Source: a virus | Taxonomy: Duplodnaviria; Caudoviricetes | DNA length: 64,000 nucleotides | Reading direction: 5' to 3' (one strand) | Virus record (IMG/VR): IMGVR_UViG_3300021256_000002 | Span: 1-64,000 of that record | Shown here: piece by piece, positions 12,961 to 64,000 of the stretch | Layout: each line of letters begins with the position of its first letter | Numbering within the stretch: the first letter of the stretch is position 1 | Made by a program: the position numbers and the translations under genes | The notes under the pieces: model-generated | What the model was told of the DNA's origin: nothing | Databases searched by the model: none | The model's input: the letters and a program-made list of their open reading frames with translations, nothing else

Positions 12961-13139
12961 TGAATCAAATGAAGAGTGGTAATTGGATGAATGTCCTTCG
13001 ATTGATGGGATTGACCAATAAAGTTAAATTCATTTGTGATATCGAGGGCTCCGGTATCGAAAATTATCTCGAGAAGCATAAGAAATCAAATGAAAAATGC
13101 CAATTGAATGAAAGCTGCTCGAGTAATAGGGGTGCGTAA
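12957..13139 (+). CDS. Small hypothetical protein
   Basis: ATGA-coupled; N-terminus resembles next ORF (NWM/VxxxRLMGxT). Confidence 0.5.
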   Translation: MMNQMKSGNWMNVLRLMGLTNKVKFICDIEGSGIENYLEKHKKSNEKCQLNESCSSNRGA

Positions 13140-13141
13140 TC

Positions 13142-13528
13142 ATGAAAAAAGGAATGAATAATGTTAATTGGGTGAGGGCTACTCGACTAATGGGAGTAAC
13201 CAAAAAGGAATTTGAACGTATCAGAGAATACGTTTATGATGTCGAGGAGTACGTCACCGTAAATTATTTCGAGAAAGACGATTCCATTGAAAAAGATTAT
13301 CTCGATCTTTATGAGTCACTTATTGATTCTCAGTTGATTTTGTTGACTTATGAATTACTGGCAAAGAAAATGAAATCAGCTGAAGATATTGATAAGCGCA
13401 GTAAGAAATTATGGGATTTGGTTTGTGAACAGGCAAAGCATTACACATTCCAAGGTATGCATGACGGCTATCACGTGTATAAGCGTGATGATAAAATAGT
13501 TAGACCTTGTAAAGTAAAGGAGAGTTAA
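13142..13528 (+). CDS. Hypothetical protein
   Basis: 128 aa ORF in operon. Confidence 0.65.
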   Translation: MKKGMNNVNWVRATRLMGVTKKEFERIREYVYDVEEYVTVNYFEKDDSIEKDYLDLYESLIDSQLILLTYELLAKKMKSAEDIDKRSKKLWDLVCEQAKHYTFQGMHDGYHVYKRDDKIVRPCKVKES

Positions 13529-41788: not shown

Positions 41789-42991
41789 TTGGTTATTTTG
41801 AACAAACTTGGTGTTGTTCTCGGAGCATGTGGAATACATGTTTGTATTGGCTCCGTATACGCATGGTCAGTTCTTACAAACCCAATTGCTCAACTTACTG
41901 GATGGGATTTGAGTTCAATTACATTCACTTTCAGTATAGCAATTCTTTTCTTGGGTTTATCAGCTGGCTTCTTAGGAAATAGAGTACAGTGCTGGGGACC
42001 TCAATTGAGTGCGATGTTCTCAGCTGGGTTTTTCGTTATTGGTTTACTTGGTTCATCTGTAGCGATGCATTTTGAATCAATTTGGTTACTGTATTTATTT
42101 TATGGTGTTATTGGGGGTATTGGTCTTGGAATTGGATACATTTCCCCAGTTGCAACTCTACTGAAATGGTTTCCAAACAATCGGGGATTTGCTGGTGGAT
42201 GTGCTGTTATGAGCTTTGGTTTCTCGGCACTTATCGCTGGTCCGCTGATGTCATGGTTGGTTGTCCAAGTTGGAGTTGAAAACACCTTTGTTATAATGGC
42301 AGTAATATATTTCATTATAATGAGATTATCTTCTCTTGGATTGCACAATCCTCCACCAGAGGTTGCAAATGAAACGCTGAAAGTTATCAACGATTCGAAA
42401 CCAAAATATTTGAATATTGATACCAATGCGGCAATGAAAACTCCAGATTTCTGGATTCTGTGGACGATTTTCTTTATCAACATTTCTTGTGGTATTGCAC
42501 TTCTATCAATCGCATCACCGTTGGCTGAAAATGTTGGTATGACTCCATATGAAGCAGCCGGAATGGTTGGGATGATTGGTCTACTGAATGGCGGTGGACG
42601 AATCTTCTGCGCATCAGCAAGCGATTATCTTGGAAGACCAAATACCTATATAGGATTCTTCCTGATTGAAATTATCGCTTTCTGGGTGTTATCATTCACA
42701 TCAAATCCATTCCTTTTCCAAAGCATCATCTTTGTAATTGTTGCTTGTTATGGTGGTGGATTTTCTTGTATGCCAGCATACATATCCGATATATTCGGAA
42801 CTAAATGGTTATCTGCAATACATGGTAGAATCTTAACCGCTTGGGGTGTTGCTGGTATTGTTGGTCCAATGACGATTACTTTGTTATATGAAAAGTTTGG
42901 TACTCATGTAATCTCATTGAGAATTTTTACTCTCCTATTTATTATCAGCCTTGCATTAGCTATCCAGCTGAAAATAAGAAATAAAAAATGA
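41789..42991 (+). CDS. MFS transporter, OFA (oxalate:formate antiporter)-like family
   Basis: About 12 TM helices; CIGSVYAWS, GIGLGIGYISPVATLLKWFPNNRG, YGGGFSCMPAYISDIFG, IHGRILTAW. Confidence 0.9.
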   Translation: MVILNKLGVVLGACGIHVCIGSVYAWSVLTNPIAQLTGWDLSSITFTFSIAILFLGLSAGFLGNRVQCWGPQLSAMFSAGFFVIGLLGSSVAMHFESIWLLYLFYGVIGGIGLGIGYISPVATLLKWFPNNRGFAGGCAVMSFGFSALIAGPLMSWLVVQVGVENTFVIMAVIYFIIMRLSSLGLHNPPPEVANETLKVINDSKPKYLNIDTNAAMKTPDFWILWTIFFINISCGIALLSIASPLAENVGMTPYEAAGMVGMIGLLNGGGRIFCASASDYLGRPNTYIGFFLIEIIAFWVLSFTSNPFLFQSIIFVIVACYGGGFSCMPAYISDIFGTKWLSAIHGRILTAWGVAGIVGPMTITLLYEKFGTHVISLRIFTLLFIISLALAIQLKIRNKK

Positions 42992-44504: not shown

Positions 44505-45749
44505 TTATACATCAAACCATGAATCTTGCATTTCATCCTGTTTGATATAAGACGTATTCTTCATAATGTCAGTAGTTAAAATAGCAAATAACTCATCCAT
44601 CGCAGTTAATTGATTATGAGCATCATATATTTTATATCTATCACCTCTCCATGATCTGTATTGATTTATGAAAATGAGAGGATCCAGATCATTCTCAATA
44701 GTCATTTTAGCTAGAGCCTTCATCTTGCGACGTTCTCTAACAATGGAATCATTTGGAATCCCTCTAAAAAGCTTTCCAGTATAAGTCAATGTATATGTAG
44801 TCTTAAGGAAAGTAAACGACTTATGTATTGGAAATATAGAAGTTTTCTTTTTATTTATAAATATTCCTAATGAGTTGGAAATTTGCTCTATTTCATATAA
44901 TAGATCAATCAAGTACTCTTTAGAATGATGGATTACAATTCTATCATCCATATAGGCGTCATAATACTTGATTCTCTTAACCGTCTTACAATAATTATCC
45001 AACCTAAGAGGAAAGAATATTCCTAAAATCTGCGAAACTGGGCTTCCAATACCAACCGATTTATGCATGTACTTTTTACCTGTTAAGATACTTTTAGAAA
45101 GTCTATGATACTCTAATGAATTAAATACTTCATTTATGATATTATCATCGTCAGTATATGAAATATCTACTTTATAATGGTCGAGAATATCTGATACAAT
45201 ACTCAATATCTTATCGTCTGGAATATATTCGCTCAATAATTGTATCATAATATCATGACGTATATTATCAAAATACTTTCTAAAGTCTATTTTAAGAATA
45301 AACCCATCTAAACCATGTTTATTAAAGAACTGGTGCATATGTTGCTCAAAACGGCGTCGAGTAAAAGATATTCCTTTACCTTTTATAGAAGCTCCATTGT
45401 CGTGAATAAAGTATTTTGACAAAATAGGTATCAAAATAAAATTAGTTAGGGTATGCTGAATAAGCATATCCTTCGGTGAAAGAGCTTGAATATACCGTCG
45501 CTTACCACGTTCAGTTAGAATGAAATCATGACCTTTTTCCATAACGTAGTGCGAATCTGAATGAAATAATTCATATATCTCATTATAGACACTGAGTTTG
45601 TTCAACCATAAACGCTGAGTAGATGCTTTCCATCCACTAGCCTGCATAATCTTATTCATTGATATATCTAAATTATTGGGATCAGTTAGTATTTCAACCA
45701 ACGGAACACCATTTAATTTCATAACTCTCATACAATCACACTCTTTCAT
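44505..45749 (-). CDS. DGR reverse transcriptase
   Basis: DNGASIKGKG, LKIDFRKYFDNIRH, GIGSPVSQ (DGR-type SQ motif), YMDD; directly downstream of TR. Confidence 0.93.
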   Translation of the reverse strand: MKECDCMRVMKLNGVPLVEILTDPNNLDISMNKIMQASGWKASTQRLWLNKLSVYNEIYELFHSDSHYVMEKGHDFILTERGKRRYIQALSPKDMLIQHTLTNFILIPILSKYFIHDNGASIKGKGISFTRRRFEQHMHQFFNKHGLDGFILKIDFRKYFDNIRHDIMIQLLSEYIPDDKILSIVSDILDHYKVDISYTDDDNIINEVFNSLEYHRLSKSILTGKKYMHKSVGIGSPVSQILGIFFPLRLDNYCKTVKRIKYYDAYMDDRIVIHHSKEYLIDLLYEIEQISNSLGIFINKKKTSIFPIHKSFTFLKTTYTLTYTGKLFRGIPNDSIVRERRKMKALAKMTIENDLDPLIFINQYRSWRGDRYKIYDAHNQLTAMDELFAILTTDIMKNTSYIKQDEMQDSWFDV

Positions 45750-46029: not shown

Positions 46030-46596
46030 TTAACCCCTTACATTAGTGTTTGCTTTATTTTTCTTAATAGCAGCACGTATAGTATTTCTAACACCATTTA
46101 GCAGTATTATTTCTTCATCGATTATATTACACATTTTTACAAAATTTTTCAATTTACCTTTACAAATATCATCGATGACAGAATACTCTCTTTTGATTGT
46201 GTATAAAACAGATATAGCTTTATTAGTCATTATTAACCGACTAGAATGTTCAACTTCCACTGTTGCCCATGTAGTATAAACAAAGCATACTGCGTCATTG
46301 AAATCTGCAAGTAATTGATAGAATCTACGACGAATATATGACCTAAAATGTTTAGGATACACCAGCTGAGCTTTATATGGTTTATCAACATTGGATTCAT
46401 TTATAACTTTTTCAAGCTCTTCAATTTTAGCTTTCGTTTCTTCATCAGAGCATTTCTTAATCAACATCAAGTCTTTAACATGTTTTTTAGTACCAAAGTC
46501 TTTAAGAATTTCATACATGAGTAAGCGATGTATCATAACCGCTTTCTTCATATATTCAACAGTTGCGGTTTTTCTATATCGTTTTAGTACTCCCAT
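46030..46596 (-). CDS. avd: DGR accessory protein (Avd-like)
   Basis: Basic helical 188 aa protein positioned between target and TR. Confidence 0.7.
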   Translation of the reverse strand: MGVLKRYRKTATVEYMKKAVMIHRLLMYEILKDFGTKKHVKDLMLIKKCSDEETKAKIEELEKVINESNVDKPYKAQLVYPKHFRSYIRRRFYQLLADFNDAVCFVYTTWATVEVEHSSRLIMTNKAISVLYTIKREYSVIDDICKGKLKNFVKMCNIIDEEIILLNGVRNTIRAAIKKNKANTNVRG

Positions 46597-46759: not shown

Positions 46760-47908
46760 TTAGGTCAAAAGGAAATAAGGGCGGACACGACCGCTGGAGT
46801 CGGAAGCGTTGGCGGCGCTGGCACGACCGGCGCCGCTCGCACTGGCGAAGTCAGCCGAATCAGTGACCGAACGAAGCCAGCACCAACCAGCTCGACTAAA
46901 GGACAGTGATTTATTATGCCTCATTGCAGCCACCTGAGTATTACAATCCCCGATATCAAAACCAGAGCTACCCCAGCATTTAGATCCATATACCATGTTT
47001 TCGTTAAACAGATTTACCAACACCGGGACCCATTCCCAATTACTAGAAGCACCGGTCCATCCAGAATAACCACTAGAAGCAACGTCTGATTTAGCATTAG
47101 TCAGCAGTTCTTTATGGTTAAGTACATGGGCAGACCCAAATGCCGCCTGAATAGCTGCTGCATATTTAGGTATAGTATTATTCCACATTTCACTACCTTT
47201 ATATCCACCAGTGGTATCGTTGGTAGGATTCATTCTAGCAGCGCCGAGTACACCTTCAGGGAACATCAATACATGATGAATAGTTGTTTCGGCATCACCA
47301 CGATGTAAATGGTAATCCAGATCACCAACTATCCATTTCACGTTATATGTAGTGCCGTCTACCGTAATTGCTTTGGTGATATAATCACCAGGATAGATAT
47401 TCTTAAAGGTACCGGTTGCAATAGCAGTACTCATTGCACCACTATTGAAATAATCAGTCAGGTCACACCCACGATATAATGCATTATGAGCACCAGCGTT
47501 ATCCAAATGACCTAAGTAAAAAGCTTTTGTTTGATCTGACCCAGCGGGGAGATTAATTTTACTTAAATCGCCCCACTGTAGAATGAGGCCACCGAATAAC
47601 TGACCAAAACAAATATAACCATTCGTAGTGATGGAGTAACGTACGCCAAGTGCTGCCAGAGTCTCCTCTCCGATAGCAGAGACGACATTTGAAGCAAAAC
47701 TTTGTATATCCCCAGTTGAATGTTGATGCGTTGCAGCTGCAGATTCGATAGCCGCGCGTGCCTCAGCAGTTGTCGCAGATTTCAAAAGGGTTGTAATGAT
47801 TGATGCAAGTGCATTTTGTCCGGAAGATTTCAACTGATCAACGTCAGTTTCCGGATGAATGATATTTCCCGTGGATTTTTGTTTCCACGTAGCATTTACT
47901 GTTGCCAT
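46760..47908 (-). CDS. DGR target: tail fibre/receptor-binding protein with CLec-like variable C-terminus
   Basis: N-terminal 112 aa end in GYICFGQLFGGLILQW; C-terminal WCWLRS...GRVRPYF contains VR. Confidence 0.9.
   Translation of the reverse strand: MATVNATWKQKSTGNIIHPETDVDQLKSSGQNALASIITTLLKSATTAEARAAIESAAATHQHSTGDIQSFASNVVSAIGEETLAALGVRYSITTNGYICFGQLFGGLILQWGDLSKINLPAGSDQTKAFYLGHLDNAGAHNALYRGCDLTDYFNSGAMSTAIATGTFKNIYPGDYITKAITVDGTTYNVKWIVGDLDYHLHRGDAETTIHHVLMFPEGVLGAARMNPTNDTTGGYKGSEMWNNTIPKYAAAIQAAFGSAHVLNHKELLTNAKSDVASSGYSGWTGASSNWEWVPVLVNLFNENMVYGSKCWGSSGFDIGDCNTQVAAMRHNKSLSFSRAGWCWLRSVTDSADFASASGAGRASAANASDSSGRVRPYFLLT
46772..46891 (-). repeat. DGR variable repeat (VR)
   Basis: 3' end of target; 13 A>G and 4 A>C changes relative to TR. 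Confidence 0.96.
47573..47579 (-). repeat. ACAGTGG junction in expressed tail-fibre gene (candidate crossover site)
   Basis: ATTCTACAGTGGG identical (13 bp) to 54152-54164; ACAGTGG core begins six cassettes on + strand. Confidence 0.7.
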
Positions 47909-48031
47909 TTAACGTCATTCCTTTCTATTAGATGAAAGACAATTCATCTGTGTTTTGTTATATTCGTATTACTATTCTGTTTGAATTTTAATTTCGAGCA
48001 GAAAATCCAGCACGATGTGCTGGATTCCTAT

Positions 48032-48548: not shown

Positions 48549-49058
48549 ATGGCTAAGATAGGCGCACTTCATCGAGTCACGAATTCGAGTGGTGGACATG
48601 TTGAGATGTATCCAATCACCTCAGTGTCTGCCATTCCTGATTTTGAAATAACCGTAGCCGCCAGACTTGCTGCTAATACAATATTCAAAACCGCTGCTCA
48701 ATGGTCAAGTGCTGGTTCAACTGTACTTCGGAATGGTCAGTTTGGGTATGAGACAGATACAAAATATGCGAAGATTGGTGATGGAAGTACTACATATGCA
48801 AATCTGCCATATGTGAAATCTCCTGTCAACCCCGACAATATTATTCGGAAAACCGCAGCTGCATGGGTTACTGCCGGTTCAACGGTACTTCTGGCTGGTC
48901 AGATTGGATATGAAACTGACAGCCATTACATGAAGATTGGTGATGGAACTACAACATATGCAAATCTGTCATATGTGATGACTCCGACTACGACAGTAGA
49001 ATTGAAGAGTGGTAACACAACGACTACGAATGATACCATCACTCTCACAATTTCATGA
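48549..49058 (+). CDS. Protein with two tandem Mtd_N/hyaluronidase N-terminal-like domains
   Basis: TAAxW...VLxxGQxGYETD...KIGDGxTTYANLxY twice. Confidence 0.8.
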   Translation: MAKIGALHRVTNSSGGHVEMYPITSVSAIPDFEITVAARLAANTIFKTAAQWSSAGSTVLRNGQFGYETDTKYAKIGDGSTTYANLPYVKSPVNPDNIIRKTAAAWVTAGSTVLLAGQIGYETDSHYMKIGDGTTTYANLSYVMTPTTTVELKSGNTTTTNDTITLTIS

Positions 49059-49096
49059 CAAAAAATCCAGAAGCTCATGCTTCTGGATTATTTCTT

Positions 49097-49606
49097 TTAG
49101 AATCTGATATCAACCAATGCAAGCATTGCACCAGCACAATCTGCGGCGAAATCTCCACCATCCCATTTGTTGTCAACCCATTTCTCCTTACCTGCTCCAA
49201 TTGCAACGGTTGTTGTGTATGCCCAGAATTTGTTCATTCCAAAGTTTCTTTGGAGTTGGTCACAAATGATATACGATACACCAAAATGAGCAACTCTATC
49301 CACACCAACCTTATTCTGAAGGTCATGCCAATTATGACTTCCTACATATACTGCACCGACAGCAAGCGCTGCAATACCGACACCCATGAGAGCTTTCTGT
49401 TTATCCTGCTTGAATTGAACATTTATCTCCTCAGATGCCTTATCAAGTTCAGGTTGAGTCGGTGTGTTCTGCTGAGCATACTGAATTGCAATCTGAGGAT
49501 TTTCCTTAGTATTTTCAGCAGCATAGCAAGACGCGTATCCAACAAACAGCATGAGCACTACGAGTACCAGTATACGAAGAAGTCTTTCACTCAAAGGAGT
49601 TTTCAT
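49097..49606 (-). CDS. Exported membrane protein, VanZ/YfiM-like (paralogue of 40143-40397)
   Basis: Signal peptide; DRVAHF...GAGKE...DFAADCAG. Confidence 0.7.
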   Translation of the reverse strand: MKTPLSERLLRILVLVVLMLFVGYASCYAAENTKENPQIAIQYAQQNTPTQPELDKASEEINVQFKQDKQKALMGVGIAALAVGAVYVGSHNWHDLQNKVGVDRVAHFGVSYIICDQLQRNFGMNKFWAYTTTVAIGAGKEKWVDNKWDGGDFAADCAGAMLALVDIRF

Positions 49607-49982
49607 ATATATTCACCTTCCTTTCATATGATTTTACTTATTAGTATATACAAATTCGTTACAAAGAGCCGAGTCTACCCCCATAGACTCGGCTCAATGA
49701 TATGGAAATGTTTCCTGTTCGATTATGGAGTTATCCGTCCAATCGAAGTCCCCAATTATTTGTTGTACACATATTATTTTTTATGAGCGCCAACAAATCA
49801 TTGTAGAAGTTGGTATGTCTCCGGCGTGTTTCAAGTTCATAGCCTTAACTGCTCCGACTACCAAGTTGATCAAGTTGCAGCGATTGCAGGCAGTTATTGT
49901 AATTACCAGCTTCTTACACTTGCTCATAAGAAATTAGAACTGGATGTTGATTCCAGTTCTAATTTTGCCCAGTATATCTAGG

Positions 49983-50285
49983 ACTATACAGTGGAGGCAA
50001 TGCGACTGTACTACAGTACCTATAACAGATGGCAGTGTAATATCAGTTAGGTGGGCTACAGCTGGCAGTATATTTAAAGTACCGTATATTATAAATCATA
50101 CTTTTGGTGCATTATTTAAAACGGTAACCAGTCCTACTTATATATATGGTAGAAATACTGGTAATGCTGATATAAGATTATGTGAGGATAGTATGGGAAC
50201 CCAATATTGGTCAGCGGCTGTATATGAGCGTCCAGGAGAAGATGGCCCAGGATTCCGTATGAACTGGATAAGTATTGGCCGCTGA
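49983..50285 (+). other. Silent tail-fibre C-terminal cassette 1
   Basis: Starts TIQW at ACAGTGG (49988), ends MNWISIGR*; no RBS. Confidence 0.75.
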
Positions 50286-53211: not shown

Positions 53212-53380
53212 AAGAGAAGGAGCAAACGCTCCTTCTCTTAAAGATGAGTAAGAAGAGTGAGCGATAACCGCTCACTCTTCTTACGTGATCTGATGTGTGA
53301 TATATGGGTATCCGACACCAGGGATCAAACTCTCCATACTATATTGTATATACCAAAATACTTTTATAAGCAAAGTTTTG

Positions 53381-53590
53381 ATTATACAGTGGATGTGTGT
53401 AATACCTACAGAGGTACCAGAAGAATTTAATTTCCCAATTAGTTTAACTAGCACTGGTGTGCGGATTATCGTAGCAACAAATAATAGCCCGAGTAGAACG
53501 GAAGCTCCACAAGTAACATCTTCTCATGCAATTGTTGATCTATTTGGGACGGCTAATATATATACATACCTGATAATTCTAGGTTCATGA
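53381..53590 (+). other. Silent tail-fibre C-terminal cassette 2
   Basis: IIQW...FNFPIS...YLIILGS*; ACAGTGG at 53386. Confidence 0.78.
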
Positions 53591-53896
53591 TATGCACAGT
53601 GGAGCCAATACAATTTTGAATTAGCTAATTTCGTTAAGAATCCTTCTGGTGGTTGGATGGTTTTAAATAATAGTGTATATTATTGGCCTATAAATGCAGG
53701 AGCATCAATAGCTCGTTCAGGTATAGTTGATTGGGGTGCATTTACTGAAAAGGGGGAACATGGAAAAACAAATCTCCCTCAAATCTTTATAAAAAGCGAT
53801 TCTGGAGGTAGTTTTTATATTAGCGGCTTATATTCCGAGATATCAGACGCCCAAGGCGGTGGGAGTTTTTATCTCATCGGATGCTTTATAATATAA
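53591..53896 (+). other. Silent tail-fibre C-terminal cassette 3
   Basis: YAQW...YYWPIN...LIGCFII*; ACAGTGG at 53596, directly after previous stop. Confidence 0.72.
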
Positions 53897-53903
53897 CTTC
53901 GCA

Positions 53904-54152
53904 TTTCAACAGTGGATGCATTGTACTCCAGAAGAATTTGAAGCCACTGGAGTAGTAAACATAAATTACAGGAAACTTCCCATTCCATCTGCTATATATG
54001 ATGCAACCTTCACATTTAGATATGCGTTTGCATGGAATGCTGCATCATATACGTCTGTTGGATATGCCAATTCGTTTAGTTTACATATTACTGATATGAA
54101 TAATAATCCATTTACTCCAAATGACGTACGCGTTGTATTTATAACCGCTTAA
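53904..54152 (+). other. Silent tail-fibre C-terminal cassette 4
   Basis: FQQW...KLPIP...VVFITA*; ACAGTGG at 53909. Confidence 0.72.
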
Positions 54153-54439
54153 TTCTACAGTGGGCTAAGTACGCTGACTCTAGTGCGATTGAAACTGGTC
54201 GCCCAAATCATATTGCATATGAAAAACAAACTAATTATGATGATACAAAACTATACCGTGCAAGGCTTCCTATATCATTCACTACTGACGATGGATTTTT
54301 CGTATGTTCAAATTCAGCTTCTGGATCAGAATATCGTAATTTCAGATACTTTGATTATATATACGGATATGGAAAAGAAGCTGTTATTTTTCAAGGAGAT
54401 ATATTAATGGCTAGAATGATTATGGTATTAGGCTATTAG
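54152..54439 (+). other. Silent tail-fibre C-terminal cassette 5 (missed by ORF track)
   Basis: ILQWAKYADS...RLPISFT...MIMVLGY*; ACAGTGG at 54157. Confidence 0.78.
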
Positions 54440-54440
54440 G

Positions 54441-54692
54441 ATTATACAGTGGACGGTTGAAACTTTTTATGGTATAAAGGATGAGAATTGTGCAGTACCA
54501 TTACCTATAGAATTCCCAGACATTTACATAGCAGCTGTAAGATCATGTTGTACAGCTTCAGGGTCTCGTAATGTAACTACGATGGTTCAAGTAATGGGTA
54601 GGGATAAAGTAATACATGACGAGTTTTTGTTTGGGGTATTCAGTACACTGAACCAAAATGTTACTGTATGCGGAATTGCATTAGGATACTAA
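54441..54692 (+). other. Silent tail-fibre C-terminal cassette 6 (missed by ORF track)
   Basis: IIQWTVE...PLPIEFPD...CGIALGY*; ACAGTGG at 54446. Confidence 0.8.
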
Positions 54693-54694
54693 TA

Positions 54695-54730
54695 AATTAA
54701 CCTAGACGGTTTAAACCGTCTAGGTTAATT
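54695..54730. terminator. Bidirectional terminator after cassette array / tape measure gene
   Basis: AATTAACCTAGACGG-TTTAAA-CCGTCTAGGTTAATT. Confidence 0.75.
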
Positions 54731-63999: not shown

Positions 64000-64000
64000 A

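Follow-up and report, generated by a model that had tools for sequence, protein, structure and literature searches.

Why does a giant phage keep a row of reading frames that have no start codon? The question is raised by the window, by which we mean the whole stretch of 64,000 nucleotides (nt) analyzed here, namely the first 64 kb of IMG/VR record IMGVR_UViG_3300021256_000002. The record, 253,296 bp long and with terminal repeats, belongs to a giant phage of the rumen. At positions 53381-54692 of the window, five open frames follow each other head to tail on the plus strand, abutting and each without a start codon. This array is a real, non-chance feature, a silent library of tail-fiber tips, and the locus to which it belongs probably serves as a large switch of host range, of a general kind that is already known. 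The frames, which we call cassettes c1 to c5, each contain near their beginning the 7-mer ACAGTGG, which we call the core. Together with the elements that bound them, they are arranged as follows:

53212-53284: two strong hairpins between the 627-aa gene and c1, which insulate the array
53381-53590, plus strand: silent tip cassette c1, starts IIQW; core 53386-53392
53591-53896, plus strand: silent tip cassette c2, starts YAQW; core 53596-53602
53904-54152, plus strand: silent tip cassette c3, starts FQQW; core 53909-53915
54152-54439, plus strand: silent tip cassette c4, starts ILQW; core 54157-54163
54441-54692, plus strand: silent tip cassette c5, the last of the array, starts IIQW; core 54446-54452
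54695-54730: perfect palindromic terminator, which closes the array against a giant minus-strand open reading frame (ORF)

The distances from one stop to the next frame are 0, 7, -1 and 1 nt, the stops are TGA, TAA, TAA, TAG and TAA, and the reading frames differ. An ATG or GTG at the start and a Shine-Dalgarno sequence are absent from all five cassettes. Neighboring real genes do carry a ribosome-binding site (RBS), namely GGAGG, GAAGGA and GAGG ahead of 50465, 50996 and 51328. The in-frame TTG ahead of c1 is the leucine codon of the domain motif LIIQW and comes without an RBS, and no late-type promoter facing into the array was found. The Q-W of all five cassettes is written ACAGTGG. According to shuffled sequences, this 7-mer is expected 4.43 times per 64 kb on both strands, or about 0.045 times in 1.3 kb of one strand, and the Poisson probability of five copies in 1.3 kb, calculated from the shuffle rate, is about 1e-9.

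An earlier interpretation of the window from its letters alone, which we call the sequence-only reading, had reported the five head-to-tail frames with these positions and gaps and without RBS, and had judged five in-frame copies of the 7-mer to be unlikely by chance; all of this holds. Its count of five was too low: the window contains six cassettes, the additional one at 49983-50285, and the genome about 16. Its account did not contain the expressed gene, the sixth cassette, the other arrays or the recombinase, which is encoded outside the window. It had also let each unit begin at xxQW. The QW part of this claim stands, and the two xx codons fall outside the unit: because the stop in relatives sometimes stands one codon ahead of QW, and the residues there vary freely, the real start is the 7-mer.

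Other explanations of the array were ruled out. Stop-codon reassignment or read-through does not fit with mixed TGA, TAA and TAG stops, differing frames and long genes that are intact under code 11. Frameshifting or hopping between cassettes would act without a common slippery context, and ACAGTGG as a late promoter of the type known from phage AR9 fails because it does not fit AACA-N6-TA/G.

What do the cassettes encode? They are Gp53-like_C tail-fiber tip domains, like those of R-pyocin and AP22 gp53 fibers. Two cassettes of the genome match the family profile PF21882 above its cut-off of 24.9 bits (27.7 and 25.2 bits), from profile position 6 or 8 to position 83 of 84. Since the matches begin at positions 6-8, the cassette frames lack only the first few residues of the domain. 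Among the window cassettes, only c5 matches PF21882, weakly (E 0.18, from profile position 7), and the junction of the full-length gene described below gives a weak match in the same register. The Gp53-like_C family is also a precomputed annotation in 9 of 25 expressed relatives. We used the AlphaFold model of one expressed relative, P0010, as a stand-in for the window cassettes. Its mean predicted local distance difference test score (pLDDT) is low, at 58, with 72-82 across most of the tip, and QW falls within a beta-strand. The best PDB matches of the model (6CL6, 4MTM, 6CXB, 6CT8 and 6CL5; E 4e-5 to 1e-4) are R1 and R2 pyocin fibers and AP22 gp53, and the matched part is the C-terminal end of these fibers. 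The sequence-only reading had taken the cassettes for very divergent tail-fiber C-termini of the gp53-like kind, which is borne out by these profile and structure matches and by the mutual identities among c1-c5 of 11-28%.

The cassettes are too diverse for one profile. When a profile of 15 cassettes was run against 1.8 billion representatives, it gave 7 short matches only, and our own hidden Markov model recovered only its seeds when it was run on every stop-to-stop frame of the genome. GenBank phage records contain no match for the 6-kb region, the 627-aa neighbor, a cassette or the constant module introduced below, an absence that bears on that collection and says nothing on function.

How could frames without starts be used? 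The genome contains one long ORF, and only one, with the same junction. It lies at 46760-47908 on the minus strand and reads ...TNGYICFGQLFGGLILQWG at residues 95-113. Its parts, and those of the adjacent diversity-generating retroelement (DGR) with its template repeat (TR) and variable repeat (VR), are the following, all on the minus strand:

47916-47981: late-promoter-like AACA-N6-TA (47970-47981) and RBS GAAAGGAA, both ahead of the start codon (ATG) of the expressed gene
47580-47908: constant N-terminal module (N-module) of about 110 aa (112-aa front ending LILQW)
47573-47579: copy of the 7-mer that marks the constant/variable junction (LILQW) of the expressed gene; its orientation is opposite to that in all six window cassettes
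46760-47572: tip now expressed, a 270-aa domain with the DGR variable repeat (VR 46772-46891)
46030-46596: DGR accessory ORF, 188 aa
45897-46016: DGR template repeat TR, 120 nt
44505-45749: DGR reverse transcriptase (RT)

The AACA-N6-TA motif derives from the AR9 late promoter consensus (PMC5312081). Late-type promoter and RBS are present on the expressed gene only, not on the cassettes. Compared with shorter proteins, the first 115 residues of the gene product have 25 metagenomic matches, mostly of 165-207 aa, with 51-98% identity save for two distant ones. Among 22 aligned proteins, the N-modules are 35-98% identical and strictly invariant over TNGYICFG.LFGGLILQW, and the tips after QW are mutually unrelated, with ends of the IGY, LGY or FGY type. 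Because these short relatives join an invariant front to unrelated tips, a constant module with one cassette is the normal product. Scans of IMG/VR for the DGR-target protein, and for the N-module junction in exact and degenerate form, gave no matches.

The DGR is complete and has the cassette expression gene as its target. Inside the repeat, 17 of 17 TR/VR mismatches are at TR adenines, and an 18th, T>C, is at the repeat edge. The DGR accounts for variation within one tip only; no TR-like partner was found for the five window cassettes, and they are not among its substrates.

How many tips does the genome hold in store? The 7-mer is present in 22 copies, 17 of them opening the same kind of frame, and the cassettes number about 16. 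Their frames stay open for 67-112 codons in a genome of 38% G+C, and each unit consists of core, body and stop, with the next core 0-12 nt later. Apart from the array, the window contains one more cassette:

49983-50285, plus strand: silent cassette c0 (the sixth); core 49988-49994; behind the fiber genes at 48549-49786

The fiber genes directly ahead of c0 are two, 48549-49058 with Mtd_N-type repeats and 49055-49786. Farther along the genome, four sites are on the plus strand at 82.7-85.4 kb and six on the minus strand at 88.0-90.8 kb. In these outer arrays, cassettes 82724(+) and 89120(-) have unrelated bodies and a common 54-nt inverted repeat that ends right after the core, and cassettes 88612(-) and 90326(-) have 56 nt in common, upstream only. 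The 54-nt repeat (genome 82679-82732 (+) and 89112-89165 (-); L009:6680-6733 and 13113-13166; 93% matched) combines an early promoter motif of the AR9 type (TATATTAT-N6-G) with a leader of 30 nt and with the core. The copy on the minus strand may serve as promoter for the recombinase operon, whose leader would then hold four cassettes. There is also one "empty" core per genome, ACAGTGGGGAAAY, with no tip domain behind it, at 85365 (+) here and at L012 2635, L013 15269, L015 9857 and L017 14012 in relatives. The one in L015 lies 144 nt upstream of the expressed gene and is the sole site that is inverted relative to it.

Is the core conserved for the sake of the protein or of the DNA? ACAGTGG is invariant in 86 of 86 distinct cassettes from eight loci, including three synonymous positions, and is also found in the expressed genes. 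CAG makes up 56% of the glutamine codons in the genome, and QW is written CAA-TGG in 10 of 17 long-gene cases. The base before CAG in the cassettes is the third position of codons for I, L, Q, A, P, K, E, T, S and V and is always A, versus a background of 24%. When QW-initial frames were searched for independently of the motif, no cassette with CAATGG came up. The control was a set of seven full-length fiber paralogs on L019, a 12-kb ENA scaffold from a different phage type, where the LIxQW junction is written CAATGG or TCAGTGG in four of the seven genes. Judged by these codon patterns, the core is constrained as DNA, not as protein. Preferences in the flanks are weak, T-(A/C)-(T/A)-core-(G/A)-(G/C), and flank information is about 0 bits. 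A shared dyad-symmetric recombinase site around the core was considered and rejected; by eye, c1 alone shows one.

Where do strains differ from each other? We compared the identity over 60 nt upstream and 60 nt downstream of the core:

c4 against sister strain L010: upstream 22/60, downstream 59/60
c1 against L010: upstream 55/60, downstream 19/60
c0 against L010: upstream 60/60, downstream 20/60
N-module against L013: upstream 54/60, downstream 20/60
DGR tip against a 420-aa protein of L019 (different phage): upstream 21/60, downstream 51/60

The c4 protein is 97% identical to L010 cassette 12577, which stands in a different upstream context, and c5 is 88% identical to L010 cassette 12866. 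Contigs from other rumen or gut samples, with about 95% flank identity, stop or switch at 49994 and 53392, in both cases the final base of the core. Evidence was taken only from joints and ends of contigs at the sites; gaps in read depth over c2-c4 in runs X4 and X8 were not used alone. The sister strain has three other cassettes for c0 and two others for c1-c3, and has kept c4 and c5. Strains L010/L011 and X3 carry three other cassettes where the c0 body would be, with the break at 49994, and X3 also has c1-c3 replaced. Cassette 90326(-), silent here, is the C-terminus of expressed P0041 (232 aa) and P0039 (158 aa) elsewhere, and P0009 has a tip with 61% identity to a silent L010 cassette. 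On these alignments, tip exchange between strains takes place exactly at the 7-mer. As for cassette number and order among relatives, which the sequence-only reading had singled out for comparison, content is replaced at the 7-mer, and L015 has 23 cassettes around its expressed gene and L017 about 22.

The alignment of the DGR tip with the L019 protein runs from the LILQW junction to the C-terminus, with little match upstream and with a different VR stretch, and L019 carries the homolog of the DGR tip behind an unrelated N-module. The L019 scaffold also has an XkdX gene. Its seven paralogs have the junction NGYI..GLIxQW, and the tips of those with the exact ACAGTGG core are homologous to giant-phage cassettes, which suggests that tips have been exchanged across phage types.

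Which enzyme might act on the core? The sole tyrosine recombinase gene of the genome, at 86693-87589 (-), encodes 298 aa (PF00589, E 3e-17) with RVSE, K, HxxR, GH and Y motifs that align to XerA; no serine recombinase is encoded in the genome. The gene sits between the outer plus-strand array and the minus-strand array, which face each other across it. Orthologs are found beside cassette arrays, at about 1-6 kb, in L012, L015 and L017, with 93, 69 and 55% identity. The recombinase gene is always followed by a second gene without family match, of 157 aa here (genome 86148-86621 (-); L009:10149-10622) and about 150 aa in relatives. It is 85% identical in L012, and the L012, L015 and L017 copies are 60-66% identical among themselves. 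Its product may be an accessory factor. The 299-aa gene beside the L019 fiber genes, examined as a candidate, does not encode a recombinase.

How, then, might the locus work? According to the reading that we prefer, and to which we give a probability of roughly 0.62, the cassettes are spare receptor-binding tips for one late tail-fiber gene and are swapped site-specifically at the 7-bp core by the linked recombinase. By cutting and rejoining DNA at the ACAGTGG core, the enzyme would fuse the constant front in frame with a different tip, and the earlier tip would turn silent. Between inverted sites, such as those of the gene and all six window cassettes, the exchange would be an inversion, as it is in the Rin and R64 shufflons discussed below. 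Between direct sites, a tip would be excised and re-inserted, or genomes that replicate or co-infect would undergo unequal exchange, which would also account for the turnover of cassettes between strains. The tip in use here is larger and is mutated by the DGR as well, which places two diversifying systems on one gene. Three elements of this scheme are inferred: that the recombinase is the catalyst, how the exchange proceeds, and any influence on host range. The layout is that of an inversion shufflon: the six nearby cassettes run opposite to the gene, and the two outer arrays point toward one another from either side of the recombinase gene.

Several observations weigh against this reading. 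The invariant part of the site is just 7 bp with low-information flanks, which is short for a tyrosine-recombinase site. The recombinase gene is 32-39 kb away from the window cassettes, and the nearest relatives of its product are temperate-phage integrases, so that the enzyme could have another purpose. Most silent cassettes in L013, L015, L020 and L021 are in direct orientation behind the expressed one; inversion alone is therefore insufficient, and excision and re-insertion, unequal exchange between genomes or prior inversion via another site would be needed. No rearranged junction was seen within any one population in assembled contigs, which hide rare variants. The source sample has one continuous contig over 46771-54724, with a single arrangement, and there is no inversion joint in the assembled contigs, which show between-strain cassette replacement at the sites. 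Moreover, for the cassettes that take the place of c0-c3 in the related strain there is no homolog elsewhere in this genome, so that at least part of the variation stems from exchange between genomes and not from internal shuffling.

One alternative, which we put forward as a tentative possibility, is an "in-frame domain integron": a tyrosine recombinase, promiscuous and Cre-like, would capture, excise and re-insert start-less domain cassettes at a 7-bp site in a structural gene, both within and between co-infecting giant phages. If this were true, rumen phages would share a very large pool of tips, including the DGR-mutable one, and cassette choice and hypermutation would operate in series on one gene.

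It is rather unlikely that the arrays have grown by accretion of orphan modules without a dedicated recombinase. Tips would then arrive by general or phage-annealase recombination with other phages at the short conserved junction, the old tip would be displaced downstream, as is the case for orphan CdiA-CT and Rhs tips, and the arrays would mostly be a historical record that is reused occasionally. Like those modules, the cassettes are silent, start-less 3' fragments that run from a conserved junction motif, are stacked behind a full gene and are able to replace its tip. Such a history would agree with the direct tandem arrays right behind the expressed gene in relatives, with the replacement cassettes of the sister strain that have no source elsewhere in this genome, and with the same junction in fiber genes of the different phage type L019, where no recombinase is seen in the locus. 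However, the likeness is one of layout only: CdiA-CT and Rhs modules each carry an immunity gene and depend on general recombination over longer homology, whereas here we find 7 bp and a linked recombinase. A 7-base stretch is too short to drive exchange by homology, and still it does not vary at the three synonymous positions in any of the 86 cassettes, while flanking codons vary freely. Accretion would also leave it to be explained that arrays are found far from any expressed gene and in both orientations, that an orthologous recombinase travels with them, and that the frames are kept open at their full length in spite of the base composition of the genome.

Quite improbable is a purely integron-like process, in which circles would be excised between direct cores and re-inserted at the core of the expressed gene, which would act like attI, the inverted arrays being by-products. 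The resemblance to integrons (IntI, attI/attC) extends to a tyrosine recombinase, long unidirectional promoterless arrays, expression of only the cassette at a fixed point and turnover between close strains. The 23 L015 cassettes are oriented as the expressed gene is, the unit of core, body and stop with the next core close behind is what excision and insertion would yield, and in every relative the expressed cassette is the one that directly follows the N-module. On the other hand, the cassettes here are start-less domain segments that are joined in frame inside a gene and occur in both orientations. There is no attC hairpin or similar imperfect palindrome, no room for one between cassettes, and no conserved inverted repeat at cassette ends. 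The recombinase is not IntI: it scores 21.8 bits with the integron-integrase model TIGR02249, versus a cut-off of 265, and its best-scoring models are Xer-like and likewise far under their cut-offs. The inverted orientation of the six nearby cassettes and the facing arrays at 82-91 kb are an inversion layout. The sequence-only reading had seen the library as acquired piecewise in integron-like fashion; piecewise turnover between strains, with breakpoints at the 7-mer, is what we find. The integron-like part is not supported, although the direct tandem arrays behind the expressed gene in relatives leave room for a mode of excision and insertion.

We would be surprised if each cassette were translated alone, from a non-canonical start or by re-initiation, into small tip proteins that dock on the fiber. 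The frames do abut closely, c1 has a TTG near its start, c1 and c3 have an ATG right after QW, and cassettes 82724 and 89120 are about 30 nt behind the AR9-type early promoter motif. Nevertheless, they have neither a common start codon nor an RBS, while phage genes have strong ones, and every expressed homolog that we found is fused to an N-module. Because the junction lies within a beta-strand, a lone cassette would also miss the first part of the fold (profile positions 1-6). Joining at the RNA level by alternative or trans-splicing, or via cDNA from the neighboring RT, is hardly credible even with the RT 2 kb from the expressed gene, given that fused genes are present as DNA in many assemblies (which comes close to refuting it), that the loci of relatives with large arrays lack an RT, that the RT has an ordinary TR/VR pair with changes inside the repeat at adenines only, and that no intron-sized conserved structure precedes the cores.

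To what known systems does the preferred reading, site-specific swapping of tips by the recombinase, relate the locus? Among published systems, the Rin shufflon of Bifidobacterium breve and longum prophages comes closest. In it, a constant front of the receptor-binding protein is combined with five start-less variable C-terminal segments of 6-30% mutual identity, an 11-bp asymmetric repeat, rix, stands before each segment, and a phage tyrosine recombinase is encoded alongside (Mavrich et al. 2018, PMC6109161). The locus shares with Rin the constant front, the start-less variable ends, a short asymmetric site, similar in size to rix, at segment starts and at the junction, and the tyrosine recombinase. 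It differs in the core, which is ACAGTGG here and TTCCCTAACCC in Rin, in the number of cassettes (16 here and 23 or more in a relative, versus five), and in its extent, with three loci over 45 kb that are mostly long direct tandem arrays. The host genome is that of an AR9/phiR1-37-like giant phage, according to distant structural matches, and not of a temperate siphovirus; one allele here is also a DGR target; and inversion at the sites is inferred here, unlike in Rin.

The in-frame swap of the C-terminal recognition part of an adhesin or tail fiber at a constant/variable boundary is also known from the R64/IncI shufflon (Rci, sfx, PilV) and from Min, Gin and Cin of p15B, Mu and P1. The sites differ, however, and Min, Gin and Cin are serine invertases, of which there are none here. 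Moreover, those systems are compact, have 1-4 segments and work by inversion only. The DGR, with its RT, TR/VR pair and in-repeat changes at adenines only, resembles that of Bordetella phage BPP-1, which acts on Mtd. We found no description of such a system in giant phages in the literature.

If the switch works as we think, a single giant phage would have about 16 ready receptor-binding tips and a hypermutable one. With 86 distinct cassettes from a handful of contigs, the population would hold many more and, if so, an unusually large host-range repertoire, which could help to account for the persistence of large lytic phages in the strain-rich rumen. The locus is a natural test of cassette switching combined with DGR mutagenesis on one gene, and the short, strict core together with a small recombinase would make a compact candidate tool for in-frame domain shuffling.

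Some minor observations concern the neighborhood. The Mtd_N-type fiber gene ahead of c0 contains a tandem 162-nt duplication at 48687-48985 (137 nt aligned, 78% identical). A contig of run X4 has joints inside this repeat (it goes back 162 and has 365 other letters), so that the region differs between strains. The 243-aa fiber gene that follows ends with TGA, and its frame stays open for 64 further codons, over 49784-49981, up to a TAG that overlaps the c0 site. This stretch is probably non-coding, because one strain (run X8) has most of it deleted. A 400-aa ORF at 41789-42991 (+) has homologs in L010 and L012 that carry the Pfam family MFS_1 (major-facilitator transporter), an unusual cargo for a phage. 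The giant ORF behind the terminator of the array runs on the minus strand from 54742 to the window end at 64000 and on to genome position 66576, with 3,944 codons from stop to stop. Its L010 homolog has 4,268 aa with precomputed lysozyme, amidase and C39-peptidase-like domains, and the product is probably a virion-borne cell-wall-degrading or ejection protein.

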